IMG/VR virus record: IMGVR_UViG_3300049070_000038
Span: 1 to 41,521 of that record
Source: a virus
Taxonomy: Duplodnaviria > Caudoviricetes
Direction: 5' to 3' (one strand)
DNA: 41,521 nt
Part shown: piece by piece, positions 179 to 41,521 of the stretch
How positions within the stretch are numbered: the first letter of the stretch is position 1
Layout of the letters: each line of letters opens with the position of its first letter
Program-made: the position numbers and the translations under genes
The notes under the pieces: generated by a model
What the model was told of the DNA's origin: nothing
The model's input: the letters and a program-made list of their open reading frames with translations, nothing else
Database searches by the model: none

Positions 179-269
179 TAAAAATATTTATTAAGCAAAG
201 CAACCTTAATTTATTTAATTACATCTAAGTTACATACAAAACAAAAATAAATTATAATAAAAATAAAGC

Positions 270-298
270 TTGACAAAATTAATATTATCTGTTATACT
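270..298 (+). promoter_or_regulatory. Sigma70-type promoter for the packaging/structural block
   Basis: TTGACA (270-275), 17-nt spacer, TATACT (293-298), TGn extension and A-rich upstream sequence. Confidence 0.75.
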
Positions 299-331
299 CC
301 ACAATGTTTGGAGAACCTACGCTAAATTAAC

Positions 332-374
332 AATCCGGGATTGATAAGTTGAAGTATTAATCCCGGATTCTTTT
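332..374 (+). terminator. Leader hairpin, terminator- or attenuator-like
   Basis: AATCCGGGATTGATA (332-346) pairs with TATTAATCCCGGATT (355-369) and is followed by CTTTT. Confidence 0.5.
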
Positions 375-387
375 AAATAAATTAAAT

Positions 388-951
388 ATGAAAGTTTTAG
401 TTGCTTGTGAATTTAGTGGAATAGTGAGAGAAGCGTTTAAGGCTAAAGGCCACGATGCTTGGAGTTGTGATATTATTGATACAGAGATTGAAGGTAATCA
501 CATAAAAGATAATGTTTTAAATTATTTAAAAGAGGGATGGGATTTAATGATAGGACATCCACCTTGTACATTTTTATCGGTAAGTGGAAATAGATGGTTT
601 AAAGTATATCCCACAAGAAAATACTTACAAGAAATGGCTATTGAGTTCTTCCTTAATTTATGGTGTTCAGGTATTCCCAAGATTTGTTTAGAAAATCCTA
701 TTGGAGTTATGTCAACAGTTTTTAAGAAACCAGATCAAATAATTCAACCTTATCAATTTGGTCACGGAGAAACTAAAGCAACTTGTCTATGGTTAAAAAA
801 TCTACCAAAACTTGAAATGACTAATTATGTTCTTAGAGAAAGAAATAATAATATTCATAATATGTTTCTTGATGGTGTAAAAGATTTAAGAAAAGAGAGA
901 AGTAGAACTTATCAAGGAATAGCTAATGCAATGGCAGAACAATGGAGTTAG
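388..951 (+). CDS. Phage DNA cytosine methyltransferase-like protein
   Basis: N-terminal VLVACEFSG, catalytic-type HPPC, ENP motif, K-T-LWL and C-terminal RSRTYQGIANAMA. Confidence 0.75.
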   Translation: MKVLVACEFSGIVREAFKAKGHDAWSCDIIDTEIEGNHIKDNVLNYLKEGWDLMIGHPPCTFLSVSGNRWFKVYPTRKYLQEMAIEFFLNLWCSGIPKICLENPIGVMSTVFKKPDQIIQPYQFGHGETKATCLWLKNLPKLEMTNYVLRERNNNIHNMFLDGVKDLRKERSRTYQGIANAMAEQWS

Positions 952-954
952 TTT

Positions 955-1413
955 ATGGAAGATAGAAACAAACATTTAAGATTAGTTCAACAAGAGCAAA
1001 CTCTTATTCCACTAATGAAGAATGAAGAGTTAAAGAAAGACATATGTCTTGCAATAAGTTCAGGACTATGCACAGTACCAGAAGACTTAGTTAATTTATT
1101 TAATATCACATACGAACAATCAATAACTCTTTTATCTGATCCTGGATTCCTTTCTTCCATAAAGAAGTTTACAACTGCTAAATTTCAATTAATGTTTCAT
1201 ACATCAGTTCCTAAAGAGTTAGAAAACATAATCAAGAATGGAGACAATAAAGAAAAACTACAAGCTATAAAGATGTATGCTCAACTTACAGATAATCTTA
1301 AGAATACAGGAACAGATGTTAACATCAATCTCAGTTTAGAGAACTTAGTTAAACAAGCAGAGAAGACAGTTAATAATCCCATATTCGATACTGAATACAA
1401 GAAGGTTAGTTAA
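955..1413 (+). CDS. Putative terminase small subunit
   Basis: 152 aa helical protein ending in a DVNINLSL-type strand, upstream of the large terminase; mainly a positional call. Confidence 0.45.
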   Translation: MEDRNKHLRLVQQEQTLIPLMKNEELKKDICLAISSGLCTVPEDLVNLFNITYEQSITLLSDPGFLSSIKKFTTAKFQLMFHTSVPKELENIIKNGDNKEKLQAIKMYAQLTDNLKNTGTDVNINLSLENLVKQAEKTVNNPIFDTEYKKVS

Positions 1414-1439
1414 CCGGGATTGAAGAGGATACTAACTTA

Positions 1440-1667
1440 ATGAGTATATTAACTAAAACATTACCTTTTCCACAAGGAGAAATAGTCTCATTAGTTAGAG
1501 ATAGTGATGATTGGTTTATTTTTATCCCACCAGAAGATTGGGCTAATTCAGAAAATACAATAATGTTTGTAGCTAAAGATAAAAAAGCTTATAATAGACT
1601 TGTTAATAAACTACAGCAAGTAATTATTCAAATCAAGCTACATAATGAAGAATGTGAATGTGATTGA
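1440..1667 (+). CDS. Hypothetical protein
   Basis: ORF preceded by GAGG, co-oriented with its neighbours. Confidence 0.55.
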   Translation: MSILTKTLPFPQGEIVSLVRDSDDWFIFIPPEDWANSENTIMFVAKDKKAYNRLVNKLQQVIIQIKLHNEECECD

Positions 1668-1738
1668 AAACTTGGAATAATTTAAATAATTTAAACATAA
1701 GGAAGTACAGCGAAGCTGGACGACCTAAAAAGGAAACA

Positions 1739-2257
1739 ATGAAAAACAAAACATATGCTATCGTTACTTTGATTACACTTTTTGTAATCTTCTCATTTTG
1801 TGCTTTTAGTGCTAAAGCACAGGATACAGTTAAAGTTGGTGTCAACTTTGTTAATTCAGAATATGTACTTAATCCCATAGAAGCTGTTGAATATCTTCAA
1901 GGTATCTCAGTTAATCTTGATGCTAAGGTTTTCTCACAGAAGGAGAATAAAGGTTTTCGTCTTGGTGGAGTCTTTTACTACAAGAGAGATAACTTTGATT
2001 TTCCCACAGACACTTATGCCTTTGGCCCTAAGTTGAGTTATCGTCTTGGATTTGTTGAACCATTTGGTCAGGTTGTATTTGGTCTTAATACCACTTATAA
2101 CGCTGATCGAGTCTTCACCAGGATTTATAGTGCTGGTGCTGATCTTAACTTTGGTCATATCTACATTCGTCCCATAGAAGTTGGTTGGCAGCGTTCAGAA
2201 GGTTTCTTCTCTCCTGCGAATCAAACTTATTCTGCTGGACTTGGATTGAGGTTTTAA
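1739..2257 (+). CDS. Outer-membrane beta-barrel protein with signal peptide
   Basis: Likely start ATG 1739 (AAGGA RBS); Sec signal ending AKA-Q; alternating amphipathic strands; C-terminal YSAGLGLRF beta-signal. Confidence 0.75.
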   Translation: MKNKTYAIVTLITLFVIFSFCAFSAKAQDTVKVGVNFVNSEYVLNPIEAVEYLQGISVNLDAKVFSQKENKGFRLGGVFYYKRDNFDFPTDTYAFGPKLSYRLGFVEPFGQVVFGLNTTYNADRVFTRIYSAGADLNFGHIYIRPIEVGWQRSEGFFSPANQTYSAGLGLRF

Positions 2258-2268
2258 ATAAATTAAAT

Positions 2269-4372: not shown

Positions 4373-4678
4373 ATGAACAGACGTAATTTCTTAAAATCAT
4401 TTAGTGCTGCTGTAGTTGGAACTGTTGCAGCTATTAAATTACCTCTAGCTACTCCATTATCTGAAAGAGTAGCAGAGGTTAAAACTCGTATAGGATTAGT
4501 AAACGAGATTATAGAAATACCTATAGATAGATTTACCACAATGCGTATTACTAAAATTCAATACTATATGAGATTGAAATCATTTACAGCTAAAGGTTAT
4601 GTTCTTAGCAAAGATGGTAAGCAATTAATCTATAATCCTAAGTGGTATTGGGATGATGAGGAGTATGTTAGTGAATAG
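4373..4678 (+). CDS. Small protein with twin-arginine (Tat) signal
   Basis: MNRRNFLK followed by a hydrophobic stretch matches RRxFLK. Confidence 0.75.
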   Translation: MNRRNFLKSFSAAVVGTVAAIKLPLATPLSERVAEVKTRIGLVNEIIEIPIDRFTTMRITKIQYYMRLKSFTAKGYVLSKDGKQLIYNPKWYWDDEEYVSE

Positions 4679-4922
4679 AAGACATTTTCTAAAAGGATTC
4701 CTTGCTAGTGGAGCAATTATCGCACTTGCTCCACTAATGCTTGTTGTAGAAGTACCTGTTTCAAGTGTAACATTTGAATCTTTAGTTGCAACTACGCTAG
4801 CAAACTATCGTCCGATTTTTGTTGATATAATAACAAGGCCGAGTCCTATTTTTGAAGCTTTAAAGAAGAATAGTTGGATTGAACAAGGCCAACCTGTTAT
4901 TGAACCTTTTATTTTTAATTAA
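4671..4922 (+). CDS. Tat-signal protein fused to a major capsid N-terminal-like segment
   Basis: Likely GTG start at 4671 (GAGGAG 7 nt upstream) gives MNRRHFLK; the C-terminal half aligns with the capsid N-terminus. Confidence 0.8.
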   Translation: MNRRHFLKGFLASGAIIALAPLMLVVEVPVSSVTFESLVATTLANYRPIFVDIITRPSPIFEALKKNSWIEQGQPVIEPFIFN

Positions 4923-4928: not shown

Positions 4929-6797
4929 ATGGCTAAAAGTCTTACAAGTGTATATACACCACAAAGCATTCCTGCTCTAGAGAGAATGGAAGGTAGTTCT
5001 AAGGAAGTTGATAATGACATCTGGATGTCTAGACTTCATCAAACTCTCAGGTGGAGACAGAACTATTGGAATGGCGATAAGAACTGGAATAGAGCTTATG
5101 ATATGTTCCGTGGTAAGCATTGGAGAGATAGACAGGAAGAGGAACCTTCGAGTGATCAGTTAAGAGATAGAATTACTGTTAATATAACTCAATCTTCTAT
5201 CCTTGATATTGTACCATTCTTAATGAATAGCAATCCTTATTTTCAAGGTAAGGCTAGAAAGCAAAGTAAAACTAACTCTGTAATGCTTCAGACAGAGATG
5301 CTTAATTATACTTATGAGCAAATAGAAGCAATCGAACAGGTTAAGAAATCTTGCTATGATGGTGCTATCTGTGGACACGGAATATTAAAAGATGGATACA
5401 ATTTTGAGTTAGATGAATCCATTAAGAAGGTTGACGGTAAGACATTAGTATATGAAAATTATATTAAAAAAGATAGTCCATTTACTAAGAGGGTTAGTCC
5501 TTTCTTTTTTCTTATTGATCCAACGGCAAGTGAAGCAAACTTGGAAACTGCGAAATGGTGTGCAGAGATTTTTCTCAAAACTGAGAGGGATATAATTGCT
5601 AATGAGAGATATGACGCTAAGGTAAGAAACAAAATCAAATCAGGTTATTATCCTCTTTTGTATAAAGGCTCTGCTCTTGGTGTTAATGCTGATGATCCGA
5701 CTTTAAATAATTTAAGCAAAGAGACAGATGATCCTGCATTGCCAGAATCAAGACTTGTTCTATTATATGAGGTTTGGGATTGGAAATATGCAAAGGTTAG
5801 AACTTATGCTGATGGTGTACCAGAACCACTACTTGTAAAAGATTGGCCTTATCCCTGGTTAGACAAGTTCCCATTTGTTAAATTTGACTACATTGCTCTA
5901 CCTGATGAATTGTATGGAGTAGGTATTCCCTATCAAATTGAGGATCAACAGTTTGAACTTAATAGAAATCGTACTTATGCATTTGAACATAGACGTAGAT
6001 TTTCTGCTAGGAAATATGAGATTGGCCCTGGTGTAGATGAAGGAGAACTTATAAAGTTTGCTAATGGCGAAGATGGTGCAATGGTTAGAGTAAAGCAGAT
6101 AGGTTCAATTGCCCCTATACCAGATGCACCTATGCCAGAAGATACACAGATTGTTGAAGCAATGATAAGGTCTGATATTCAAGGTTCAACAGGCTTAGAT
6201 GCAGTTGTAAGAGGCCAAGCTTTACCAGCAAGGACAACAGGAGTAGAAGTAAATACAAGGACATCAATATTTAGGTTGAAGCTTGAAGATAGAATTAATA
6301 CAATAGATAAATTTGTATTGAACAATGCTAAGCATATATTACAACATATCAAAGGTACTTATAATAAAGATAGGGTTGTAAGAATGATTGGTTCAAAAGG
6401 TGAATACTGGGAAACACTTACACCTGAGATGATAAGAGAAGAGATAGATATTTTTATGGATACTATCTCTGCTCCTAAAGTTGATCCTCTTGTTGACAGA
6501 CAGTTAGCACTACAGGTTTGGCAGATAACAACATCTGTTCAACCTGGAATGCTTCAAATAGATTATAACGCTTTATTTGGTTGGCTTATGGAGAAATTTG
6601 GAATTAAAGACGCAGGTAGATTCTTTCTGCCTGCGCAAACTCCAACACCACCAATATTGGAAAATCCTGCTCCTCCTGATCCTAACAAGCAATCTACAAA
6701 TGGCATAGTTCCAACACTTGCACCACAACAACCAGGACTAAACGCAATGTTACAAGGTATAACACAGAATGGAAATCCATTAGGAGTGCAACAATGA
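4929..6797 (+). CDS. Portal protein
   Basis: 622 aa between terminase and scaffold/capsid; RVSPFFFLIDP, LYEVW, PFV...LYGVGIP...QQFELN patterns; Pro/Gln-rich tail. Confidence 0.88.
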   Translation: MAKSLTSVYTPQSIPALERMEGSSKEVDNDIWMSRLHQTLRWRQNYWNGDKNWNRAYDMFRGKHWRDRQEEEPSSDQLRDRITVNITQSSILDIVPFLMNSNPYFQGKARKQSKTNSVMLQTEMLNYTYEQIEAIEQVKKSCYDGAICGHGILKDGYNFELDESIKKVDGKTLVYENYIKKDSPFTKRVSPFFFLIDPTASEANLETAKWCAEIFLKTERDIIANERYDAKVRNKIKSGYYPLLYKGSALGVNADDPTLNNLSKETDDPALPESRLVLLYEVWDWKYAKVRTYADGVPEPLLVKDWPYPWLDKFPFVKFDYIALPDELYGVGIPYQIEDQQFELNRNRTYAFEHRRRFSARKYEIGPGVDEGELIKFANGEDGAMVRVKQIGSIAPIPDAPMPEDTQIVEAMIRSDIQGSTGLDAVVRGQALPARTTGVEVNTRTSIFRLKLEDRINTIDKFVLNNAKHILQHIKGTYNKDRVVRMIGSKGEYWETLTPEMIREEIDIFMDTISAPKVDPLVDRQLALQVWQITTSVQPGMLQIDYNALFGWLMEKFGIKDAGRFFLPAQTPTPPILENPAPPDPNKQSTNGIVPTLAPQQPGLNAMLQGITQNGNPLGVQQ

Positions 6798-29740: not shown

Positions 29741-30007
29741 TCATTCTTGTCCTGGTTGCAAGACATCATAATCTTTCTCCATTATCTTATAGATTTCAAT
29801 TGCAATATAACCTATAGCTTGTGTCTTTTCCATAGGTTTCTTTTTAAGAACTGAAGCTGTTATTCTGTTTAAATAATATAACTTCTTAGGTTTCAACCAC
29901 CTTCTAAAATCATTCTCTTCAGGATTGTTCTCTGAATTAATATAATTGTTTAGTGCATCTAATGCAAGAACACTGATAACATTCTTATATGTAGATCCTC
30001 TACCCAT
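29741..30007 (-). CDS. Hypothetical protein
   Basis: Coupled ORF with GAGGG RBS. Confidence 0.55.
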   Translation of the reverse strand: MGRGSTYKNVISVLALDALNNYINSENNPEENDFRRWLKPKKLYYLNRITASVLKKKPMEKTQAIGYIAIEIYKIMEKDYDVLQPGQE

Positions 30008-30336
30008 TAATCCCTCTCCTTTGTAATACCTAGTTCATCTAATCTCTGCCATTTCATATCTTTCATAAAGCTACAATGCTTAGCATTTATATAGTGGTAA
30101 AAGTTATAGCATTGATCGTTAGGACACTTATCATAGTATACCATACTATAACAATTCATACACATAATACCGTGTTTGAATCCGAATATCTCTGCGCCAA
30201 TACCTGTAATCATATAACCTTTTGTTTCTATCCACCTATATTCAGCAGGACTAATATCACAATTTATTTTCTCTGTTGGTAAATTATCTATTAAGTCATA
30301 CCCGTCATAATCCCATTCACTATATTTTATACTCAT
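30007..30336 (-). CDS. Hypothetical Cys-containing protein
   Basis: CxxC...CP...C pattern. Confidence 0.55.
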   Translation of the reverse strand: MSIKYSEWDYDGYDLIDNLPTEKINCDISPAEYRWIETKGYMITGIGAEIFGFKHGIMCMNCYSMVYYDKCPNDQCYNFYHYINAKHCSFMKDMKWQRLDELGITKERD

Positions 30337-30586
30337 TTTGTTTTTCCCTTCTAACCTTTCTAGCTTCCCATATTAAATTATTTAATCCCAAGTCAGGATA
30401 GTAAGTATTTCTACTAACTAATCCTTCTTCTTTCATTTTATCTACAATAGATTTATATCTAGTATCGTGTCCAAGTTTAGCATTAGGCCATCCTTCCCAT
30501 AAGTTTTGATGTTTAAGTAGCCATTCAATCTTTGCACTCCTACTTGATTTATAATTACTTTGATATTCACAATCTCTTTTTCTCAT
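30320..30586 (-). CDS. Hypothetical protein
   Basis: ATGA overlap with the primase-helicase stop. Confidence 0.55.
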   Translation of the reverse strand: MRKRDCEYQSNYKSSRSAKIEWLLKHQNLWEGWPNAKLGHDTRYKSIVDKMKEEGLVSRNTYYPDLGLNNLIWEARKVRREKQNEYKI

Positions 30587-32226
30587 CCTAACATACCTCT
30601 CAATTCTGGTTTCATTTGTTCTCTAACTATTTGATGCGCATAATCTGTATTGAGATGGAAAGTTTTACTTGGCCCTCGTGTATTCTTAATCATTTCAACT
30701 TCCATCACATCAGGCATAATCTTTGAGATAATATATCCTGATTGGATAATGTATTCAATATCTCCTGACTCTTTGAATACTGCCTTACCTGATTTCTCAT
30801 ACATACTACGTGGTATGGATGATATGAGTATGACTATCTTTCCATCTTCTCTACATAAATTACCTAGTTGTCTAGCATTATACTTAATGCCTGCTCTCTC
30901 ATCATCACCTTCATACGGCATACGTTGTATGTAGTCTACTATTATAATATCAAAGTTCTTAGATGCGACCTTGATCTGTTCTATTGTCCAATCAGTTTCT
31001 ACTTTAACTCTGCTACTTAAATAATTTAAACGATCAACTGTTTCAGCCTCAATAATTGAATGATCCTTTTCAATATCTACCCAACTATGCTTAGATGTTC
31101 TACTTGCAAACCTTGCCCAATTCTGTTCCTTAGTTAATTCGTAATCAACTGACAATACCTTTTGATCTTGACTAACAAACGTATCAATGAAGTATGTTTT
31201 TAATGTACTCTTACCTGCTTCTGGCATACCAGCTATAGCGTGCATACCTGTAGCAAATCCACCATTAAGAGCAGAATCAAGACTAGGTATGCCAGTAGCA
31301 ACATACTTAACTGTCCTGTTGTTTTGAAGGAAGGTATTAGCCATATAGTTAACATCATATGTAGCATACCTAGAGATGGATTCCTGTAACCAATTAGTGA
31401 ATCCAACACTATCGTAACAATAAGCAGAGTTAATATCAATCTTGTTCTCTTCCCCATTTCTAAATCTCTCAGGAATCTTTAATGGAACAACAGTTGCTTT
31501 AAACTCTTTAAGAATTTCGATTGCTTTCTTTGTGCCCATATGCCCTGCATAGTCAACATCGAACAACACAAACACGACTTTCCCATACAGACAGTATAAT
31601 TGTTTTGGTTCAAGCTGTACTCCAAGTGTGCCCGCAATATTCCTAAATCCGATTTGATAGAGGGTAGCATAGTCTGTAAATCCTTCACATAGGATGACGG
31701 TATCGAGTTTGTATATTCCAGCTTTAAGAAATCCACGTTCCTCACCTTTAGTATTTCTGTGCGGCCTTCCATCTCCATCAATGATCCTACGTCTAAAAGT
31801 TTTCCCTTTTTCATATTCAATTACCAAATGCCCATAGTCAGGATGAGTTATGTCATTAACATAGTAACCCCCTAACTCTTCTATTGTTTCTGGTTTCAAC
31901 TTCTTAGAGATTAAGAAGTCAGCATATTGTTGTGCTTGTATTTTCAATGGTCTTGGTTTAATGGGTGTTGTATTATCAATTAATTTATTTAACCAGTCTG
32001 TTTTCTCAATCTTAAATCCATTATAAATAACACCTAGTCTTTCAGCTAGTACTGTAAAGTGTAATGCGCCACAACCAGCAAGGCAGTTAAACATTTGATT
32101 TTCAAAGTTTAATCCTGCTGATGCATTGTTATCGTTATGAATTGGACAAGCAATGGTTACCCACTCAGGTAGATAACCATTGATTGTCACATTAAACCTA
32201 CTCGCTATTGCTTGTGTCAGATTCAT
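30583..32226 (-). CDS. DNA primase-helicase
   Basis: Zinc finger CPIH...CLAGC; TOPRIM CEGFTD and FDVDYAG; Walker A AGMPEAGKST; Walker B IIVDYIQ; KNTRGP. Confidence 0.9.
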   Translation of the reverse strand: MNLTQAIASRFNVTINGYLPEWVTIACPIHNDNNASAGLNFENQMFNCLAGCGALHFTVLAERLGVIYNGFKIEKTDWLNKLIDNTTPIKPRPLKIQAQQYADFLISKKLKPETIEELGGYYVNDITHPDYGHLVIEYEKGKTFRRRIIDGDGRPHRNTKGEERGFLKAGIYKLDTVILCEGFTDYATLYQIGFRNIAGTLGVQLEPKQLYCLYGKVVFVLFDVDYAGHMGTKKAIEILKEFKATVVPLKIPERFRNGEENKIDINSAYCYDSVGFTNWLQESISRYATYDVNYMANTFLQNNRTVKYVATGIPSLDSALNGGFATGMHAIAGMPEAGKSTLKTYFIDTFVSQDQKVLSVDYELTKEQNWARFASRTSKHSWVDIEKDHSIIEAETVDRLNYLSSRVKVETDWTIEQIKVASKNFDIIIVDYIQRMPYEGDDERAGIKYNARQLGNLCREDGKIVILISSIPRSMYEKSGKAVFKESGDIEYIIQSGYIISKIMPDVMEVEMIKNTRGPSKTFHLNTDYAHQIVREQMKPELRGMLG

Positions 32227-32392
32227 ATGAGGGATTCAGGCATATTAGTCTTTGTAGTAATCCAGTTTCTATTGAATCATTAAACTGTTTAATAAAGAAT
32301 GCTGTAACTTCCGTTAGATTTTTACATACGTACAGCTTACCATTCAATGTACATATATAACCATTCTCTACTTTGTTAACAACTATTTGCAT
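32198..32392 (-). CDS. Hypothetical protein
   Basis: KVENGYI motif; AAGGA RBS. Confidence 0.55.
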   Translation of the reverse strand: MQIVVNKVENGYICTLNGKLYVCKNLTEVTAFFIKQFNDSIETGLLQRLICLNPSYESDTSNSE

Positions 32393-32413
32393 TTACTTTT
32401 TCCTTTAAATAAA

Positions 32414-32728
32414 TTAAACAACATCAGCTAAGCATTCAACATCACCGACCTTAACCCATACCTTATTGTCTACCCACTCTGCATTATCTTTCAACCTATC
32501 TCTAAACTCCTCTGGTATAATACCACTGTGCCACATATCACAGCTTTCAAATGTCTTATCAGGAAAGCCTAACAGCTTCCATCTAAACCACCTACCACCA
32601 AATCCACAGAACTTAGATGGTTCTTTGTTAACACCAACAACATACATATGATGATCAATTATCACCACTTGTTTTGTTTTAAGCCATTCTATTCTTTTCT
32701 CCCAAAACATTCTTTTAAAATCTACCAT
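32414..32728 (-). CDS. Hypothetical phage protein
   Basis: GFGGRWF...WHSGIIP..FRD.L.DNA pattern. Confidence 0.65.
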   Translation of the reverse strand: MVDFKRMFWEKRIEWLKTKQVVIIDHHMYVVGVNKEPSKFCGFGGRWFRWKLLGFPDKTFESCDMWHSGIIPEEFRDRLKDNAEWVDNKVWVKVGDVECLADVV

Positions 32729-32873
32729 TACTTTTCCTTTCTTTCTATCCTGGTTCGTACTGCATCAAGTATATCAGGTGTGCCACAAGATAACCAAGAG
32801 CTAACAAATATTAATATAATTAATATAGTAACTGATCTAATACCGTAAACGCTTTCAATTAAATTATCTGATT

Positions 32874-33260
32874 TCATCTATCTCTCCATTTCTTTATGAG
32901 TTTAAAAACAGGGTCGAGTAATTTAATCCAAGATGATATTGGCAGTGTTAATCCTTCTTCAGTTGGATCATACCATTCACGTACTCCATCTGTTCTATGT
33001 TCAAACTTTCGTATGTCCAAACATAATCCTTTAATCTTATGATCTAAGATGCGAACATAGAATGTATGGTTGCCAATAAGAATGGGTAGACTTGTGTCTA
33101 CCCTTTCCCAAAGTTGTCTAGTTCTTCTACCTGTGTACTTGTTAGGCTGTCTTCTATTAGGTGCAGGCATATCTGCCAAAGCACAGTAGCTCTCCCATTC
33201 AAGTACAATAGGATTGAATGATGGTATGCTGTCTTGCATAACGCTCAATCGTTTTCGCAA
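32874..33260 (-). CDS. PC4/YdbC-like ssDNA-binding protein
   Basis: LDIRKF...PTEEGLTLP. Confidence 0.6.
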   Translation of the reverse strand: MRKRLSVMQDSIPSFNPIVLEWESYCALADMPAPNRRQPNKYTGRRTRQLWERVDTSLPILIGNHTFYVRILDHKIKGLCLDIRKFEHRTDGVREWYDPTEEGLTLPISSWIKLLDPVFKLIKKWRDR

Positions 33261-33537
33261 GACTTCGCGCTGTATTGGATTTAGTTTCTTTATTCTCCTG
33301 CATACGAAAGGGATCAGTTAATTTATTTAACTCCACCCCCTTTACTAAATCCATATAAGCATTATTAACCATTGCTTCTGGAAGTGATTCAAGTAGGATA
33401 CGATTAAGATGTGGTTCTTTTTCTAACTGTTCGATTTTAGTCCAGTTAGTTTTAGCGTAGGTTTCTTCAAGGTATTCATTTTTCTTATTGACAAGTGATT
33501 CAGAATGTGAGATAATTCTGTCAAGTTGATCACCCAT
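33199..33537 (-). CDS. Hypothetical protein
   Basis: GGGGG RBS-like sequence upstream. Confidence 0.55.
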   Translation of the reverse strand: MGDQLDRIISHSESLVNKKNEYLEETYAKTNWTKIEQLEKEPHLNRILLESLPEAMVNNAYMDLVKGVELNKLTDPFRMQENKETKSNTARSLAKTIERYARQHTIIQSYCT

Positions 33538-33602
33538 TACTACCCCCTATAGGAAGGAAAAGACAATGTTAGAAAACAATTCCGCGTAAGTACTACTAAT
33601 AC

Positions 33603-33818
33603 TTACGCGGACACTTCTTTAATCCTTAATGGATTTCTAAGCAATGCAAGAGTAGTTGCAAACTCTTGTCCCTCTAGCTGCATATTCTTTTTAATTAAAA
33701 ACTCTATCTCCTTTTCTTGCTTGTCATACCCAAGCATATATTCAACTAGCTGCATTTCCAGCCAGCCTACGTATTCTTTCTCAGTTAATATTTGTTTGGC
33801 TTCATCTTTAGTTAGCAT
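33603..33818 (-). CDS. Hypothetical protein
   Basis: AAGGAG RBS directly after a promoter. Confidence 0.65.
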   Translation of the reverse strand: MLTKDEAKQILTEKEYVGWLEMQLVEYMLGYDKQEKEIEFLIKKNMQLEGQEFATTLALLRNPLRIKEVSA

Positions 33819-33840
33819 AATATCTCCTTCGATACCGATT

Positions 33841-33869
33841 ATTATACCACATTAAATTAATTAAGTCAA
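33841..33869 (-). promoter_or_regulatory. Sigma70-type promoter for the replication genes
   Basis: TTGACT-17 nt-TATAAT with TGn; the 13-bp motif lies in the spacer. Confidence 0.85.
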
Positions 33870-34005
33870 GTTTATATTTTGTATATGTATCTTATCATTC
33901 TTTCCGAATCTATCTGTAACTTCAGCGCACAAACCAGATTGTATTATTGCCTCAAATCTTCTTCTGACTTACTACTGCGCATCAATTCAATTACTGTTTC
34001 TCTAG

Positions 34006-34230
34006 TCATACTATAATCTCCTTTAATTTATTTAAACTCTCTTGTGCTTCTTCTATTAGTTCTTTAACTTCCTTTACAAATGAATCATATTTAATATTTC
34101 CTGTTCTATTCATATGACAGGATTTTACATACATACAATCTACATTGACATTAATCTTATCAACTAATTTTTGTATCTCTTCCCATTCTTTTCTACTTAG
34201 TATATATTTCATAATTGTGGTATATCCCAT
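34006..34230 (-). CDS. Hypothetical protein
   Basis: ORF in the operon; start uncertain. Confidence 0.5.
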   Translation of the reverse strand: MGYTTIMKYILSRKEWEEIQKLVDKINVNVDCMYVKSCHMNRTGNIKYDSFVKEVKELIEEAQESLNKLKEIIV

Positions 34231-34520
34231 ATTGAATCATTAAATGGTTGGATCAACCATAAGACTGATGTCATAATATATTGTTCATCATTAACATATT
34301 CATTGTGCTCATCAATTATTGTTCTACCTACCGGTAATCTATTTGAATCTGGGTAGTTATTTACAAACCTACGTCTAGCATCTGATACCGATAGTACGTG
34401 TGTCTTGATCATATGTTCAAGCATAGCTGCAAGTTCTAACTTCTCATACTCTAGTATCAAATGGGTAGGAATTTCGTGGCGTTCGGCATAAGCTATTTGG
34501 TATGGTTCAAAGTCGGGCAT
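34209..34520 (-). CDS. Hypothetical protein
   Basis: AGGAG RBS. Confidence 0.6.
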   Translation of the reverse strand: MPDFEPYQIAYAERHEIPTHLILEYEKLELAAMLEHMIKTHVLSVSDARRRFVNNYPDSNRLPVGRTIIDEHNEYVNDEQYIMTSVLWLIQPFNDSIWDIPQL

Positions 34521-34595
34521 TGAGGGATTCTCCTATGTTGTTTAATTTATTTAACTACATTTATTTAGATGTAAATAACTAATGATAGGTTGCCT

Positions 34596-34650
34596 AAAAT
34601 AAAAGGGAGTATATAAGTTCTGCCTGACACAGATCAATATATACTCCCTT
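34596..34650 (-). terminator. Intrinsic terminator-like hairpin downstream of the ParB-like gene
   Basis: AAGGGAGTATATA / TATATACTCCCTT stem followed by TTATTTT on the minus strand. Confidence 0.65.
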
Positions 34651-34711
34651 CATTACAAGTAACAGCCCATCTTGACACTGTTAAAAACTGTTACTTGCAA
34701 TATTAATTTAA

Positions 34712-35740
34712 TTAATTAGTCCCAAACAAATCTTTCAAAGCTGACTTACTCTGTTCGGGTGTGACTTCAACAACAGTTTCTTTCTTTGACTTCTTAGCTT
34801 TGCCTTCTCCCTTAACCTTCGGCTCTTTAACCTTCTTAGGCTTAGGCTGATGGACTGGTTTAACCAACCAGTCCAAATGTCCAGCACCTTGCTGTCTAGC
34901 CTGACTCAAAGAAATATCACCAATGAAGAATGAGATAAGAGCAACATACGGATTAGGAACATTGCTATCACTTGTCAAGGCTTTCCAATCTTTCTTGTTG
35001 AAAGCATCAGAAGGACTAGGCGTCCCATTCCTAGCAGCCCTAGCGTCCTTGCCTTTGATCTTAGTACCGCCAGCAAGTCTTACTTGTTCATCCAATCCTT
35101 CCAAGAAAGCTTTAACTTCCTTCTCATCGTAGGTAGCAGTAAGGCCAGTGGCCTTAGCAGCAGGCTTACCAACAGCTTTCTTAATAGTAAGCGCAGCACT
35201 TTCCGTAAGCTTACCTTTCTTAATGTATTCGTGTACAATCTTAGGCATATCACCAAGACTAAGGATATGACTAACGGCAGCGCCAGTGATACCGCACATT
35301 GTAGCAACTTCCTCTTGGTTCATACCAGTAGCCAAAGCTTTACGAATACCGTATGCAGATTCAACTGCTGTATTCTCAGACCTATTAAAATTCTCTGTCA
35401 ATTCCAAAGCAACATTAAGTTTAGCTTCATTGCTATGGACGATAACAGGAACTTCCTCAAATCCAGCAGCAATAGCAGCACGTACTCTCCTACGTCCAGC
35501 CACTACAACATCCTTCTGCAATTCTTCAACGTGAGTTATAAAGACAGGTGTATGAATGGCACCAAAAGCTTTAACTGACTCAACGAAATCAGGATCAAGC
35601 CCTCTATCTCCACGCTTGTCATAATATTTGGCAAGCAATCCCCTATGTTCAGGAAACTTATCAAGGTGTGCCGATGTAACGATCAGTAATTCTTGTGGAT
35701 TTCTAGTTTCAAGTGTACGGTTTGCAAATTCTTGGTTCAT
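34712..35740 (-). CDS. ParB/Srx-domain DNA-binding protein
   Basis: SV..FG.I..PV, VVAGRRRVRA (GxRR), ENFNR, HTH (QEEVATMCGITGAAVSH) and Lys-rich tail. Confidence 0.85.
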   Translation of the reverse strand: MNQEFANRTLETRNPQELLIVTSAHLDKFPEHRGLLAKYYDKRGDRGLDPDFVESVKAFGAIHTPVFITHVEELQKDVVVAGRRRVRAAIAAGFEEVPVIVHSNEAKLNVALELTENFNRSENTAVESAYGIRKALATGMNQEEVATMCGITGAAVSHILSLGDMPKIVHEYIKKGKLTESAALTIKKAVGKPAAKATGLTATYDEKEVKAFLEGLDEQVRLAGGTKIKGKDARAARNGTPSPSDAFNKKDWKALTSDSNVPNPYVALISFFIGDISLSQARQQGAGHLDWLVKPVHQPKPKKVKEPKVKGEGKAKKSKKETVVEVTPEQSKSALKDLFGTN

Positions 35741-35785
35741 ATTATTTCGTATCTCCTATTTAGTTTTTTACGGAATTTAATTTAT

Positions 35786-36145
35786 TTAAATATCAAAGAT
35801 GTTTCTTAGCTTCCAACTTGTACCATCAAATACAAGTTGTATATTCCTTATGCTTCGTGGTTGTTTGATCACTAATACCTTTACAAAATGTTCAGGCATA
35901 GCAGCTAACTTTATTACATTCTCCTCAGCAAACAAAGCCTTAAAGTTAGCATCTCTAGTTAGACTATGTTTACACTGTATCATATAGAATGCTGGTTGTT
36001 CGTTTGGTGATAGCTTTATCCACACTAAAAGATCAGCAACACCGTGACTACCAGCGCTACGCATACCATCATACCCTTGATCCCTTAATTTATTTAAAAT
36101 TGATCTTTCAAAATCAGCACCTTGTTTTGCTTTACTTCTAGCCAT
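35786..36145 (-). CDS. Holliday junction resolvase, Hjc-like
   Basis: GADFER...SAGSHGVADL...IQCK. Confidence 0.8.
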   Translation of the reverse strand: MARSKAKQGADFERSILNKLRDQGYDGMRSAGSHGVADLLVWIKLSPNEQPAFYMIQCKHSLTRDANFKALFAEENVIKLAAMPEHFVKVLVIKQPRSIRNIQLVFDGTSWKLRNIFDI

Positions 36146-36146
36146 A

Positions 36147-36956
36147 TTAAAATCCTATGTCAATAACTTCTTTATCTTTCCAACAACTACGATCACCAAC
36201 ATTATCTCCGAATGGGCACCATTGACATTCATAATCCTTTGGATTGCTATGATCCCTATTAGGTTGCTTACCTCCACTCATAATTCTTTCGTATATATCT
36301 TTTAACTTATTTAACTTCTGGACTATAAAACCAGGATCAATGTCTACTCTAATAGGCATAAGTATTTTACTGGTCTCTCTGTGTTTAACTATAAAATACC
36401 ATCTCTCAAGATTCCACAATAACATATATCCTTGTGCTTGTCCATACCATTCGTCTGAAATCTCACTTTCTTTTCTTATCTTATCAAACATTGCTTGCTT
36501 AACTGCCTTACACTCAACACCATATACACCATATGGTGTAGTAATCAAAGCATCTGTATGTCCTATTAATTTATATCCACCAAACCTATCAGCGTTATAC
36601 TCTCCTTCCTGTGTATTAGCAGATACCTTAAGTTGATAACCATCAGGCAAACCACGTTGAATATTTTTTAATATAGCTTCTTCGTGGATATGACCATCAT
36701 TAAGAAAATTAACTCCACTCAATCCACTCTTCTTACCTATAGTCATTATCTTAAATGTTTTCTTTGCACATCCACCAATGTCTGATGATACGTGGAAATG
36801 ATCTCTCTTATATTCGTCATTTCCCATATCGTGCATTGATCTACAAATACTACAAGGCGTACTGTTTAGTGCTTTGATATGGTTGCCTAATTCGTGTGAT
36901 TGGTATAATAGGTTAGGCATTTCATCACCTATTTTAGCTGCTAATTCAATCTTCAT
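36147..36956 (-). CDS. Cas4-like PD-(D/E)xK exonuclease
   Basis: N-terminal Cys, G..H, GHTD...VECK, Q..GY and C-terminal CQWCPF...C. Confidence 0.8.
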   Translation of the reverse strand: MKIELAAKIGDEMPNLLYQSHELGNHIKALNSTPCSICRSMHDMGNDEYKRDHFHVSSDIGGCAKKTFKIMTIGKKSGLSGVNFLNDGHIHEEAILKNIQRGLPDGYQLKVSANTQEGEYNADRFGGYKLIGHTDALITTPYGVYGVECKAVKQAMFDKIRKESEISDEWYGQAQGYMLLWNLERWYFIVKHRETSKILMPIRVDIDPGFIVQKLNKLKDIYERIMSGGKQPNRDHSNPKDYECQWCPFGDNVGDRSCWKDKEVIDIGF

Positions 36957-36960
36957 TTAT

Positions 36961-37410
36961 TTAATACTCCCTCAAATGATCCTCAATATATTTACTTAAA
37001 TCTATTGAATCATAGACAGCTCTACCAAACAAATGGCAAACTGGCTTATCAGATTTAAACCTATCATTAAGACATTCACCATATTTATGTAATGCTTCGT
37101 GTATTAGAGTAATAGTTAAACTATCTTTTGATCTTTTTATTCCTTGATTGATGTAGATTACATCTCCTTCGGCATATGCACTAATGCTAGTAAATCCATA
37201 TGGAATACGCAATCTTAAATCCATTGTCTCAATGATAGGGTATAATTTATTTAAAATACAGTTAGCATCATTATGCTTATCTATATGGTTTCTAATTGTT
37301 TTAAGTGTATCATATCGGTATTGCTCTAATTTTGATACGCTCATATTTGACTGAATATTGGAGTAACTACATCCACTTAAACAGGCTGCTAGTAGGAGAA
37401 GTTTTTTCAT
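36961..37410 (-). CDS. Putative lipoprotein with HExxH metallopeptidase motif
   Basis: MKKLLLLAACLSGC lipobox; IYIN...TLIHEALH. Confidence 0.65.
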   Translation of the reverse strand: MKKLLLLAACLSGCSYSNIQSNMSVSKLEQYRYDTLKTIRNHIDKHNDANCILNKLYPIIETMDLRLRIPYGFTSISAYAEGDVIYINQGIKRSKDSLTITLIHEALHKYGECLNDRFKSDKPVCHLFGRAVYDSIDLSKYIEDHLREY

Positions 37411-37643
37411 TTAGTTTGTTCCTTAATTTTTTTAACATCAATTTTTAGATTGCAATGTGGACAAATAATGTGTGTAATTTTTTGATTCCAATAAGCATTA
37501 CGACATACAATGCCGCAATATTTTTGCCAATGAGTTTTTTGGTTAAACTCTTTCTCGCACATCAAACATTTCGTAAGTTTTTTCTCTCCACTTTTTTGAT
37601 AAATAATATCTGACATCTTCTTCACCATCAAAAACTTTTCCAT
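37407..37643 (-). CDS. Zinc-finger protein
   Basis: CLMC...F...QKYCGIVC and CPHC. Confidence 0.6.
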   Translation of the reverse strand: MEKFLMVKKMSDIIYQKSGEKKLTKCLMCEKEFNQKTHWQKYCGIVCRNAYWNQKITHIICPHCNLKIDVKKIKEQTK

Positions 37644-37878
37644 TTTTAAATAAATTACACAAGCTACAACTTACAACTAAATTATCTATTTTATCGCATT
37701 GTGTATAAACAAACGGCATTTTGTGATCTACGTGTTTCGATAATGAAATTAAACCTTTCTTAGATAAAACACTCTCAAATACATAACGTCCACACCAAAA
37801 ACAGTTATCCTCATCTCGAAATCTTTTAAGTAAATTATAGTTATTTTTACGTTTTTTCATAGCCAAAAGCCTTTCCAA
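37543..37878 (-). CDS. HNH endonuclease
   Basis: CFWCG...HVDHKMP...NLVVSCSLCNLFK. Confidence 0.85.
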   Translation of the reverse strand: MERLLAMKKRKNNYNLLKRFRDEDNCFWCGRYVFESVLSKKGLISLSKHVDHKMPFVYTQCDKIDNLVVSCSLCNLFKNGKVFDGEEDVRYYLSKKWREKTYEMFDVRERV

Positions 37879-37906
37879 TAGCCTCCATAACTAGGCTCAT
37901 AAATGC

Positions 37907-37935
37907 ATTGTAATGCTTCTGGCTGGCTTTGTCAA
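37907..37935 (-). promoter_or_regulatory. Sigma70-type promoter
   Basis: TTGACA-17 nt-TACAAT upstream of the HNH gene. Confidence 0.7.
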
Positions 37936-38152
37936 GTGGGAAGAATAGGCGACGTAGTGCTATATAAATTTCATCATAAATGTGTCATTTTGATACGCCC
38001 TATGTCAAGTACATTTCCTCTATTTTCTACCTTTTTTCCTCTTTTTCCAAGCTTCAATTATCCTTTCTGCTCTTCTAAAATCTCTCTTCATTTCCTTACG
38101 TTCTTTCTTCTCAAGTATCCTCTCTCTTCTACTTTTCATACTTTTAATTTAA

Positions 38153-38371
38153 TTAAAGTTCGTCAGTATATACTACTACAATGGAGTAGTTTCTTTTTTG
38201 ATTTAGAAAATTCCACATTTCTCCATCATCAGGAGATACAAATAATTCATACCAAGTCTGGTAACTTGCAACACTTCTACAAAATAAATTTTCTGCCATT
38301 CTACATAATGTATCTAAATCGACATCTTGACAAATATTAACTCTTTGAGAATTTCCGATTATTCTATACAT
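38153..38371 (-). CDS. Hypothetical protein
   Basis: AGGAG RBS. Confidence 0.6.
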   Translation of the reverse strand: MYRIIGNSQRVNICQDVDLDTLCRMAENLFCRSVASYQTWYELFVSPDDGEMWNFLNQKRNYSIVVVYTDEL

Positions 38372-38400
38372 TTAATTATCTCCTATGGGTTTTAATTTAT

Positions 38401-38604
38401 TTAAAGAAAGTAAATCAGAAAGTAAATCAGAAAGTAATCATATTTCTGAGGGTGCATATCAACTATGCAATGCCATTGCAAACAATTGTCTCTCGTTGTA
38501 TCCATTACAACTAATCTCTGTTCATTAGAATTGCAATGAAATATTCTGCAAGTATCTGTTTGATAAATCAATCTGTCAAATGCTCTAATTTCTTTTACTG
38601 TCAT
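38401..38604 (-). CDS. Hypothetical protein
   Basis: GGAG RBS; ends in a 12-bp tandem repeat (YFLI). Confidence 0.55.
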   Translation of the reverse strand: MTVKEIRAFDRLIYQTDTCRIFHCNSNEQRLVVMDTTRDNCLQWHCIVDMHPQKYDYFLIYFLIYFL

Positions 38605-39194
38605 TTATTTATCTCCCAACCATTCCATATACCATATGAGTATATCTGAAAACCAAATAGCATCATACATATATGCAAATGGAATAATCACTAAGGTACA
38701 GAATCCAAATATTTGGAGGAAGAAACAAAATCCTCTCTTCTGTTCCTTCCCAGGTTTATCATCATCTTTCTGCATTCTAACACTAACAGCTTTCTGGCGT
38801 GTTTGATTTATTTAAACAGAATAGGGATTATAGTATCCGCCTTTACTTTTCTCTTTTAATTTATTTAAGAACTTGAAGCAACATACATTCAGGTTACTAG
38901 CCAACATAGCCTAACGATCTTAACTTACTATGCTTTCACTGTTGTTAGTCAGCTAAAATGTATGCTGCTTTAAATTCTTAAACGCGTTAGAAGCTATAAC
39001 TTTGCTGCTTATCACACATCACAGCTTATCTCCCTTAGCTACATCAGGCAGTCAATACGCTGCTTTATCTCCCATTGTGATGCAACCGTGTTAACTTATT
39101 TAACTACGTGCATTTAATAGATTAGGCATTCTAAAAGCATCTCAGCTTACGTATTGAGCTATTCAGTTTTCAATCAATTTAAATAATTTAAAAC

Positions 39195-39257
39195 GGAATT
39201 AAATAAATTAAAATCTCTTCAACTAATAACTAGTGGAGTTTTAATTTATTTAATTCC
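39195..39257. repeat. Paired-motif inverted-repeat cassette, copy 3
   Basis: Perfect 19-bp inverted repeat; 39193-39222 is the exact reverse complement of 15038-15067. Confidence 0.9.
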
Positions 39258-39292
39258 TAATCAGTCTAATTCAACCAATCCCGCGTTAAAGA

Positions 39293-39529
39293 TTAATCTT
39301 TCGCCAAAGTCACAATGATTCTATGTTGGAATTCTGTGTTTGATGACCGAACATTTGAAAACGTATAACCTTGTTCCCATTTGTTCATATACCATTCAAC
39401 ATATTCTGGATTATAGAATTCGTCAATCATTCCCCAACTCTGGTCATAATTCACATTCTCTTTGCAGAAATCACGTTGCGTCATACTAGCAACTATTGTA
39501 TTTGGGCTAGTAAATATTTGTTCTATCAT
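39293..39529 (-). CDS. Hypothetical early protein
   Basis: GGAG RBS. Confidence 0.6.
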   Translation of the reverse strand: MIEQIFTSPNTIVASMTQRDFCKENVNYDQSWGMIDEFYNPEYVEWYMNKWEQGYTFSNVRSSNTEFQHRIIVTLAKD

Positions 39530-39811
39530 ATTTATTCTCCAATCCCGCTTTTAAATCTTTATCTTGTTTTTGTTAGTGTTTTTGGTTGTCCCATAATATT
39601 CTCCAATCTACGGGATTGGCTCAATAAGACTGATTATTAAATTATCAAATATCACATTTTAGCTTGAACGTTCCATAACAATTCAAGGCTTACGGGTTAA
39701 TCTTTCGGATTACCTTTTCTAACTACTAAGATGTATATAATCCATCTTAGGTTGCTTGTCAAACTTAATTTAATTAGAATCTGATTTAATCTAGGATAGC
39801 TGTTAAATTGT

Positions 39812-40075
39812 TTAACTAAAATAAGTTAGTGGTAATCCATCTTGTATTGCATTTAAGTTTAGATTTGTGGGAGAGAAGTGATTTTGATATAATCCTAATT
39901 TACGATTAAGATTTTGGATATCTCTCTTAGCAGATTGAAGCTTTCTTTCTGCTACTGATTCTAAGCATAAATTCAAATACAAGTAACTTGCATTTTGTCT
40001 CTCAATGTGAAACAAATCTCTAATGCGTCTGTTTCTAGCTTCTATTTGCTTTTGTCTTTTAGACTTCATAAGCAT
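39812..40075 (-). CDS. Hypothetical basic early protein
   Basis: AAAGGT RBS. Confidence 0.55.
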   Translation of the reverse strand: MLMKSKRQKQIEARNRRIRDLFHIERQNASYLYLNLCLESVAERKLQSAKRDIQNLNRKLGLYQNHFSPTNLNLNAIQDGLPLTYFS

Positions 40076-40145
40076 AATAAACCTTTCTAGCTAGCCTAGA
40101 CTCAATTAGATTCTAATTAAATTGTCAAAGAACTACAAATCTTAT

Positions 40146-40193
40146 ATCCCGTAATGGAATTGAACCATTATTCAAATGCCTATCATTCGGGAT
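40146..40193 (-). ncRNA. tRNA-like minihelix (acceptor stem plus T-arm)
   Basis: ATCCCG.../...CGGGAT stem with AATGG-TTCAATT-CCATT arm; no anticodon arm. Confidence 0.5.
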
Positions 40194-40209
40194 TGTTTAA
40201 TTAATTTAA

Positions 40210-40419
40210 TTACCAATCACCGGCATCATATGCCTCTTGATTCGTCCTATGAAGATTAAGACCACTATTCTTTTCAGCACATATCATTGTGCAATATCGT
40301 CCAGCATATATTCCTTGATCATCATAAATCTCTTCCATTTCCCAACGATCAAAGTCTTTGTGACAACCTGGACACGTTCTAATATCTTTCATATTGTTGA
40401 ACTGTTTGTCATATTCCAT
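40210..40419 (-). CDS. Small Cys-rich early protein
   Basis: AGGAG RBS; CPGC...YCTMIC. Confidence 0.6.
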   Translation of the reverse strand: MEYDKQFNNMKDIRTCPGCHKDFDRWEMEEIYDDQGIYAGRYCTMICAEKNSGLNLHRTNQEAYDAGDW

Positions 40420-40456
40420 TTTAATCTCCTAATTGTTAAAGAACTTTAGAACCTAT

Positions 40457-40499
40457 AGCCTGTGTTGGATTTGATCCTACATCTTATAATGCACAGGCT
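40457..40499 (-). ncRNA. tRNA-like minihelix (acceptor stem plus T-arm)
   Basis: Perfect 7-bp AGCCTGT/ACAGGCT stem with GTAGG-ATCAAAT-CCAAC arm. Confidence 0.5.
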
Positions 40500-41068
40500 T
40501 ATGGGAATATGTTATACAGTATGAGATAATCTCTATTCCCATTTAAGAATCTGAAAACTCGTTTTCAGTTTCGTATTAAAAGAACTGAAACTAAGATGTT
40601 TAATCTCTGTAATTGGTTGCCTTGATAATTCGATATCTAATCTTTATTCGTGGGAATGCTTTAATAGCCCACATCCACCAATGAATATCACTGTAAAGCA
40701 TTTCGGGCAATGGATATTCAATTAAGTTTTCAATCTTCCTCATTTCACTCCTATGGGAAAACTAATCATTAGTTTAATCTTCCAAAGTTTGAAGAACTTG
40801 GTAACAGTTCTCTTACGCTTCTTTGTGAGAAGAAAGTAGTCTTTCTTCAGAATATAAGGTGATCCCACATTTGTCAATCCTTTCAACCTTAATTTAATTA
40901 CGTAATTAAATGAGAGTAAGTATGAGATAAGATGTTCTCTGAACTCTCAATGCCTAACTGGATCATTTCTTTGATTTACGGTTACGTAACCATTACAGCT
41001 CTATGCTGCCTTTGGCATTTATAACGGAACATTTAAAATCAGCATAGCCAGTAATCTAGCTTTTCTTA

Positions 41069-41130
41069 CTCTCAGACCACGGACGCCTTTAGCGTCCTGG
41101 TTTCGATCTTACAATCTCATCTTGTGAAAG
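41069..41130 (-). ncRNA. Hammerhead ribozyme-like RNA (type I topology, variant core)
   Basis: Three stems, GAAA and a GUC site are present; the core reads CAAGAUGA rather than CUGAUGA. Confidence 0.5.
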
Positions 41131-41301
41131 AACTTAATTTATTTAAGATGTTCTCAGATAGTGATAAGTTATACTTCATCGTGTTAGCCGTGCATCAATC
41201 TAGGAATCTAATCTTCGATTTTATCACTTACGCATCAGATACTTCGCGTTTACTTATCACTATCAAAGAACATCTTTTGTCTTTCGGACAGCATAGGTGT
41301 A

Positions 41302-41317
41302 AGCAATGAGTATGCCA
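41302..41317 (-). promoter_or_regulatory. Sigma54-type -24/-12 promoter candidate
   Basis: TGGCATACTCATTGCT matches TGGCAY-N5-TTGCW with exact GG-N10-GC spacing. Confidence 0.55.
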
Positions 41318-41521
41318 TAGTTTTTAAATAAATTAAGTTGTGAGGAATAATAGAGTTATGGGAATATTAGAAGATATACTAATAATAGTATTATACCAAA
41401 TGGTGAGTAGAATTATTAGAAATCAGGGCTTATATATTATAAGTATAAGAAAAGAAAGAAGATAAGATATTATACCATATGGTAAGTATGTTATACTATT
41501 TAGTATATGTGAAGCTTATAT

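Follow-up and report, generated by a model that had tools for sequence, protein, structure and literature searches.

What purpose is served by a palindrome that recurs along the whole of a viral chromosome, inside genes as well as between them, and which protein reads it? The question is raised by a phage record of 41,521 bp (IMG/VR IMGVR_UViG_3300049070_000038, Caudoviricetes; the window, as this entire stretch is called here), linear, 96% complete and with a GC content of 34%. A preliminary description had noticed in it an array of a 13-bp palindrome, TTAAWTWAWTTAA, between positions 206 and 41336, and had proposed that a dimeric protein, either the phage's own ParB-like protein or a host nucleoid protein, coats or organises the chromosome through these sites. 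We find that the array is a real, strongly selected feature of a whole clade of phages; with a probability of roughly 55%, by our estimate, its sites would be loading sites, similar to those of KorB and Noc, for a ParB-family protein that the phage encodes without a ParA partner.

The palindrome array

Each of the 53 positions at which an exact copy had been reported does carry one, no additional exact copy was found, and the density of about one site per 0.8 kb holds; there are also 29 copies with one mismatch, including the three mentioned earlier at 18645, 22041 and 39091. The chance expectation under independent bases, previously given as 0.3 copies, is 0.17 on recomputation. Markov models of order 0 to 5 predict 0.11 to 0.95 exact copies, those of order 6 and 7 predict 4.2 and 11.8 because the motif inflates its own words, and codon-aware shuffling (60 whole-genome shuffles) gives 1.9. 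Inside genes, 19 copies are fully coding, compared to a mean of 1.63 and a maximum of 6 in 500 synonymous-codon shuffles; the other 34 are intergenic or overlap the end of a gene. As already described, sites are translated as LNNL in the portal and scaffold genes, as VNLFN in an ejection-type gene and as LNYL in the polymerase and helicase genes, and some copies form gene junctions.

The unit of the array is TTAAWT-W-AWTTAA, a palindrome of 6-1-6 layout: the arrangement TTAA-N5-TTAA occurs 73 times, compared to 0 to 15 times for each of the 15 other spacings from N0 to N15, and a T is favoured one base beyond the 13-bp unit (61 of 106 half-sites). The pattern read backwards has 12 matches in the window, which are probably overlaps with the sites themselves. 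Of the 52 strain substitutions, the 40 that were listed all fall outside the sites; as only about one would be expected there, this is not used as evidence. The array and the individual sites referred to below are as follows.

206..41336, unstranded: palindrome array, 53 exact and 29 one-mismatch sites, established by counts, shuffles and spacing tests
5703..5715, unstranded: coding site in the portal gene (LNNL), kept in relatives G001 and L233
19380..19392, unstranded: site inside the large ejection-type gene; NKL replaces NNL in relatives, with the motif retained
33852..33864, unstranded: site within a promoter spacer; the promoter, TTGACT-17-TATAAT, is strong, sigma-70-like and on the minus strand
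34703..34715, unstranded: site overlapping the parB stop codon, by position
35777..35789, unstranded: site 37 bp upstream of the parB start and overlapping the resolvase stop, by position

Relatives of the window, which is G000 in our set, are labelled G001 to G008 or by L-numbers. Conservation at synonymous positions, which the preliminary description had proposed to examine, was evident in these genomes. Where the residue is identical, the codons in sites are unchanged in G001 at 34 of 34 positions, compared to 2000 of 2793 (72%) elsewhere (P = 1e-5), and in L233 at 23 of 24, compared to 1391 of 2086 (67%; P = 8e-4); L230 behaves likewise (9 of 9, compared to 825 of 1138, or 72%; P = 0.055). 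The sites were taken from either genome of a pair, which slightly biases the test towards a positive result. All eight aligned coding sites of the window are kept in G001, three more sites of which align with window sequence at one or three mismatches; L233 has five of the window's coding sites exactly and two with one base changed, and L230 keeps three of three. At the site at 19380 the replacement of NNL by NKL in relatives changes an amino acid and preserves the motif.

The sites are also more evenly spaced than random placement would produce. With sites less than 60 bp apart merged, the coefficient of variation (CV) of the gaps in the window is 0.70 for strict sites (P = 0.024) and 0.62 for the one-mismatch set (P = 0.0004); it is 0.51 in G001 (P = 0.0006), 0.54 in G006 (P = 0.0001) and 0.32 in L031 (P = 0.0003), while in G008 the unmerged sites have a CV of 0.48, equalled in none of 20000 random trials. 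When the non-coding sites are held fixed and only the coding ones are randomised, an equal evenness is reached in 0.5% of trials for the strict sites of the window, and in none of 10000 for its one-mismatch set, G006 behaving likewise. Sites inside genes occupy the stretches that intergenic sites leave empty, and the spacing itself is under selection. An internal site is present in 10 of the 12 genes of at least 900 nt; the other two, parB and the capsid gene, each have sites nearby.

No orientation of the sites with respect to transcription was found (centre base in the sense direction A in 31 and T in 22, P = 0.27; in G006, P = 0.89), and there is no enrichment at sigma-70-like promoters, with sites at two of five in the window against a background of 0.50, and at none of seven in G006 against 0.23. 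Gene junctions carry a site in 30 of 65 cases, and 27 of the 66 genes have one within 60 nt upstream of their start. The site at 33852, inside a promoter spacer, is the one clear operator-like placement.

Distribution among related phages

The plus strand of the window carries a P22/SU10-type portal, terminase, capsid and adaptor, and the minus strand polymerase A, a primase-helicase, a Cas4-like nuclease, a resolvase and the ParB-like gene; the coding fraction is 89%, and no tRNA genes were found in the window. The sequencing runs that contain it are soil metagenomes, and positions 28000 to 41521 are partly covered, mostly at 99% identity or more, by contigs of four public soil runs from separate studies; an assembly artefact is therefore unlikely. 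GTDB genomes yielded no close prophage relative, the top capsid identity being 41%.

The same motif as in the window occurs in 31 copies over 24 kb in G001 and in 11 copies over 7.9 kb in G003, and a looser form of it in the L002/L233 phage. Other relatives have variants: TCAAAT-S-ATTTGA in 49 copies over the 41 kb of G006, 44 of which are the exact 15-mer TTCAAAT-S-ATTTGAA; 35 copies, 30 of them exact, in its sister G008; 11 perfect TTCAAAC-W-GTTTGAA in 11.5 kb of L031, a sequence of 51% GC; TTAAART-W-AYTTTAA-type sites in L232 and L234; and a TCAAAY type in L239. Aligned on their centres, all these variants have AA at -4/-3, a pyrimidine at -1 and T at -6, in one register. Degenerate arrays, scored against codon-aware shuffles, are present in G005 (no strict and 26 loose sites, 6.3 expected) and L153 (8 loose, 1.2 expected), and G004 has a weak and uneven one (1 strict and 16 loose sites, 6.6 expected; CV 1.66); unconstrained expectation-maximisation and a degenerate beam search on G004 and G005 had converged on codon periodicity and were abandoned for these shuffles. 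There is no strong array in L154 or in G007 (7 TCAA-N5-TTGA in the latter, 2.1 expected).

When 19 capsid rows are placed in a tree, every array is found within one clade of 14 rows (support 89/96, not starred), and sister phages share a motif (G006 and G008; L232 and L234; G000, G001, L002 and L230). Since kin share traits in general, this agreement is no proof of coevolution with any single gene. Dyads were surveyed in 114 loci from capsid and ParB scans, and in 88 loci of at least 8 kb from genome and polymerase scans, with the mycobacteriophage Corndog added; the strongest arrays among the 88 are those of G006, Corndog and G008. A scan for the L031 15-mer in 25 of the 64 parts of the viral set returned 120 stretches, each with a single copy, and no new array.

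A separate feature of these genomes is the avoidance of the tetranucleotide CATG, which is absent from positions 1 to 41521 of the window, where about 130 copies are expected. It occurs in 0 to 4 copies in G001, G006, G008, L031, L230, L233 and L239, and is partly depleted in G004 and G005; this points to a host restriction system shared by the phages.

A ParB-family candidate reader

Of the two binders named in the preliminary description, the ParB-like protein of the phage emerges as the leading candidate on the basis of family, predicted fold and synteny. The genes that enter into this and the following considerations are listed here.

34712..35740, minus strand: orphan ParB-family gene, 342 residues, with an NTP-binding N-domain, a helix-turn-helix (HTH) and a lysine-rich C-terminal tail; candidate reader
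34209..34520, minus strand: gene for a protein of 103 residues, near parB in G000, G004, G005 and G006; may be a partner of ParB or a reader in its stead
955..1413, plus strand: probable small terminase, from its position and helical N-terminus, with no family match; contains the site at 1091

The protein scores above the cut-offs of the ParB profiles PF02195 (33.3 bits, cut-off 26.3), PF17762 (30.6, 22.6) and TIGR00180 (67, 58.45), and well below that of the Noc family TIGR04285 (54 bits, cut-off 315). A Foldseek search with its structural model retrieves ParB at E 2e-8, and the closest solved structures are those of Spo0J, ParB, Noc and KorB. Nucleoside triphosphate (NTP) motifs can be recognized in VAGRRRVRAA (GxxR) and ELTENFNR (EN); GxxR is kept in 18 of 19 ParB rows, the lone miss being an N-terminally short protein. 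The model has a five-residue helix at 2-6, a central HTH (helices within 125-190) with a predicted local distance difference test (pLDDT) score of about 80, and a C-terminus consisting of a low-confidence lysine-rich linker and one terminal helix. No ParA match was found among the window proteins, the helicase being the one called gene with a Walker A motif, and a ParA-binding motif is present in none of the 19 ParB proteins.

A syntenic ParB without ParA is found in the window, G004, G005 and G006, and thus in all four near-complete genomes of the clade, with identities to the window protein of 37, 43 and 24%, respectively; the divergent G006 protein was recognised by reading of open reading frames, by hhalign and by a TIGR00180 score below the cut-off. 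As to the co-occurrence of array and gene that the preliminary description had proposed to examine, parB is present in all four of these genomes, two of which, G004 and G005, have weak arrays. G007, which lies outside the clade and is 93% complete, has neither a ParB match nor a strong array. Among the 88 surveyed loci a ParB profile hit occurs in five: the arrays are strong in G006 and Corndog and weak in G004 and G005, and L333, where the hit is marginal, has none. A profile search shows a small full-length subfamily (nine proteins at E<=1e-30), and the protein as a single query found no match in the viral contigs or cultured phages searched. In G006, as in the window, parB is flanked by sites; this is weak evidence, because so many junctions carry one.

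Comparison with known systems

On the IncP plasmid RK2 the KorB operator OB, a 13-bp palindrome of 6-1-6 layout, occurs in 12 copies over 60 kb (PMC13768133), and both KorB and Noc are ParB-family dimers that load at a palindrome, close on cytidine triphosphate (CTP) and diffuse over kilobases (PMC11790492, PMC13768133, PMC8429893). The window shares with KorB/OB a protein of the ParB-CTPase family with an HTH and a dispersed 13-bp 6-1-6 palindrome that is often far from promoters (PMC11790492, PMC13768133). It differs in the sequence of the site and in its density (about one per 0.8 kb rather than 12 in 60 kb), in having neither a ParA/IncC partner nor a ParA-binding motif, and in being a phage with a lytic-type gene set; moreover KorB has a clamp-locking co-repressor of the KorA/TrbA type, and none is known for the window ParB, of which the 103-residue neighbour is a possible partner. 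Noc of Bacillus is likewise an orphan ParB paralogue that nucleates on palindromes (NBS) scattered around the chromosome and spreads into large nucleoprotein complexes, but it has a 16-bp site, a role in cell division and a membrane-targeting helix (PMC8429893); at its N-terminus the model of the window protein has the helix of five residues mentioned above. VirB of Shigella is another orphan ParB-type clamp that loads at specific sites (virS), slides and remodels nucleoprotein; its sites are few, promoter-linked and on a plasmid, and anti-silencing has been shown for it (PMC10770331). From ParABS partition systems the window is set apart by the absence of a cognate ParA and by sites that are spread evenly instead of being clustered at one centromere.

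Among phages, the stoperators of Cluster A also form large sets of short sites over the genome, often at gene junctions, but they are asymmetric, oriented with transcription, and bound by the monomeric immunity repressor of temperate phages, none of which holds for the window (PMC9283540, PMC4351075); the 21-base repeats of T1-like phages are, like stoperators, oriented and asymmetric (PMC11447400). A closer parallel is offered by Cluster O mycobacteriophages such as Corndog, in which a 17-bp dyad without known function is repeated 34 times (PMC4351075). The half-sites of these dyads are invariant; the sites lie within genes and between them, for the most part not at promoters, and have no fixed orientation, and the phage encodes gp90, an orphan ParB-like protein, without ParA or integrase (PMC4351075). 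In that paper gp90 figures as just one of three candidate DNA-binding proteins (PMC4351075); its N-domain and HTH align with the window ParB family (hhalign 95%, E 3.6e-8). We re-derived the count of 34. The phage and the sequence are unrelated to ours, the layout is 7-3-7, the density is half, and the sites crowd at the right end, with a spacing CV of 1.06 as opposed to 0.32 to 0.70 in the window clade.

Orphan ParBs are widespread and largely uncharacterised, and their nucleotide preference is not predictable from sequence (PMC12704722). A literature search, made largely outside the subscription journals, found no description of an evenly spaced, spacing-selected array read by a phage ParB. 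The window array would be a variant of dispersed ParB-site arrays, with partial precedent in the Cluster O phages.

Discussion

These observations can be interpreted in terms of a ParB dimer that would bind each 13-bp palindrome and, if the biochemistry of KorB, Noc and ParB is a guide, would close into an NTP-dependent clamp. By the same analogy the clamps would slide outwards, those of neighbouring sites jointly covering the intracellular genome. In what is the weakest step of the proposal, the resulting coat may compact and shield, or sort, replicating phage DNA rather than repress single promoters. The selected, even spacing of about 0.8 kb would fit full coverage by short-range clamps, and a structural role is favoured because promoter linkage is lacking and the tail of the ParB is basic. 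The sequence-specific dimeric binder originally proposed, reading a genome-wide array as opposed to ordinary operators, finds support in the even spacing, the lack of orientation and of promoter enrichment, and the conservation of coding copies; the identity of the reader and its purpose, be it condensation, protection or silencing, are inferred. A bolder version, tentative and in our opinion rather doubtful, is that orphan ParB and spacing-selected sites form a chromatin private to the phage, a coat that would serve as a self-mark, compact the genome and protect it against host defences or nucleases of the phage itself; site and protein would have drifted jointly, giving each lineage a code of its own.

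Several observations weigh against ParB loading sites. G004 has an intact ParB (37% identical) and yet one strict site and uneven loose ones, and G005 a ParB (43%) and no strict site; in G006 the site resembles that of the window, although its ParB is only 24% identical, has a changed HTH and does not reach the TIGR00180 cut-off. The arginine that Spo0J has in its recognition helix is missing from the predicted one here, ITGAAVSHIL. In Gordonia phage Hedwig, ParB-like genes are present without a strong array, and the array of Corndog, a phage picked because its array was already known, is not evenly spaced. The parB region is covered in only two strict-array genomes, as G001, G008, L031, L232 and L233 stop short of it (G008 starts inside the helicase), and other shared genes, namely those of the 103-residue neighbour and the small terminase, match the same distribution. 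Finally, how strict an array is largely follows CATG avoidance, which is a trait linked to the host.

Some other dimeric protein of the phage could read the sites, be it the 103-residue neighbour, an excisionase-like HTH protein (23347-23838), or a repressor that would form stoperator-like roadblocks along the genome. The 103-residue gene is present in the same four genomes as parB, the occupied gene junctions and the one promoter spacer would be in keeping with regulation, and motifs that follow the phage tree are compatible with any phage-encoded reader. We nevertheless regard this as unlikely: the 103-residue protein matches no HTH family (its model is confident, with pLDDT 82, but has no clear fold match, the best Z being 4.1, and no Atlas hit; it may yet have a DNA-binding fold), tblastn with the excisionase-like gene gives no match in G006, and the sites, symmetric and unoriented unlike stoperators and not enriched at promoters, belong to a phage with no integrase or cI-like match among its 66 proteins. 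Somewhat less probable again is a host nucleoid, silencing or defence factor, for which the phage would carry host-specific marks in its genome. A host reader would account for G004 and G005 having ParB without a strict array, and most strict-array phages avoid CATG while the weak-array G004, G005 and L153 do not. Phages with equal CATG avoidance, however, carry different motifs, which follow the phage tree, and L232 has a strict array without such avoidance; host nucleoid proteins usually bind looser sets of sites than those of G006, which are letter-identical in 44 of 49 cases; and the 120 viral stretches with the L031 15-mer, from 25 of the 64 parts of the viral set, include none with a second copy and none with a close match to window proteins. 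IHF, whose consensus the site had been said to resemble loosely, was rejected: none of the 53 strict sites matches WATCAANNNNTTR, the best match having two mismatches at 48 sites, one at 3 and three at 2. The sites are closer to it than random positions (29% with two mismatches, 49% with three) but are without the C, and relatives have TCAA-N5-TTG variants where IHF has N4.

It seems improbable that the sites mark phage DNA for packaging or ejection, for instance through the small terminase binding all along it, or for self-recognition while DNA is packaged. Homologues of the probable small terminase occur throughout the clade at 32-62% identity, and a process that scans the genome from end to end would be well served by evenly spaced sites; but G007 has a homologue (26%) and no array, terminases of P22-type podoviruses start from a single pac region, and dyad symmetry points to a dimer and not to a ring. 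That AT richness, codon bias or signals for translation start produce the array as a by-product might be suggested by the 34% GC of the genome and the copies upstream of 27 of its 66 genes. We consider this refuted by the nulls, in which codon-aware shuffles give about two copies, by the retention of synonymous positions, by G004 and G005, which share the GC content and have one and no strict copies, and by L031 with its perfect 15-mers at 51% GC.

If ParB does load at these sites, ParB clamps would have a role in phages in organising or self-marking a whole genome; in the private-chromatin version they would be used beyond partition and repression, and the Cluster O repeats would be explained as well. 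ParA-less ParB-like genes in many phages and dispersed palindromes in some are both unexplained in the literature found. In this clade the spacing is selected despite the constraint on portal, polymerase and ejection genes, and the site has several natural variants, of which two occur together with a candidate reader in their genome. The relation of site and ParB is approachable with one purified protein and two oligonucleotides, for which the versions for the window and G006 ParB pair are TTAAATAAATTAA and TTCAAATCATTTGAA; the cultured Cluster O phages provide a genetic system.

Other observations

Three sites fall within 75 bp at 39179-39253, in a gene-poor early region (38776-41521) with several sigma-70-like promoters, which is a candidate origin or control region. 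A DNA methyltransferase-like gene at 388-951 (phrog_757) was not found in any relative searched; if it encodes a cytosine enzyme, a link with the array is unlikely, because the site contains no C. An outer-membrane beta-barrel-like gene with a signal peptide (1664-2257), possibly for superinfection exclusion, lies immediately upstream of the terminase gene and is conserved in G001, G003, G004 and G005; its neighbours in the Atlas are spread over several phyla and do not point to a host. Between terminase and portal lie two small genes with twin-arginine-like RRxFLK starts (4373-4678 and 4653-4922), the first with homologues that adjoin the polymerase in G004 and G005, the second with a C-terminal stretch resembling the N-terminus of the capsid protein.

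A second dispersed element, the 20-bp quasi-palindrome ATTTCYTGASTTAGRGAAAT, occurs in six exact copies in G004:C1 (at 2382, 7142, 15032, 17428, 26001 and 30766) and is absent from G005; G004 has the weakest main array, and the element is possibly a replacement site or a separate operator. Moderate dyad excesses in the unrelated loci L296 (ATGTA-N1-TACAT), L335 (GATCG-N12-CGATC), L261 (TGCTA-N6-TAGCA) and L216 (TCTCT-N14-AGAGA) may represent tandem repeats or further arrays. Lastly, L228, L233 and L235 derive from a 94-kb metagenome contig in which the capsid gene occurs three times with a period of about 42 kb, and which is a concatemer-like assembly of the G002 phage.

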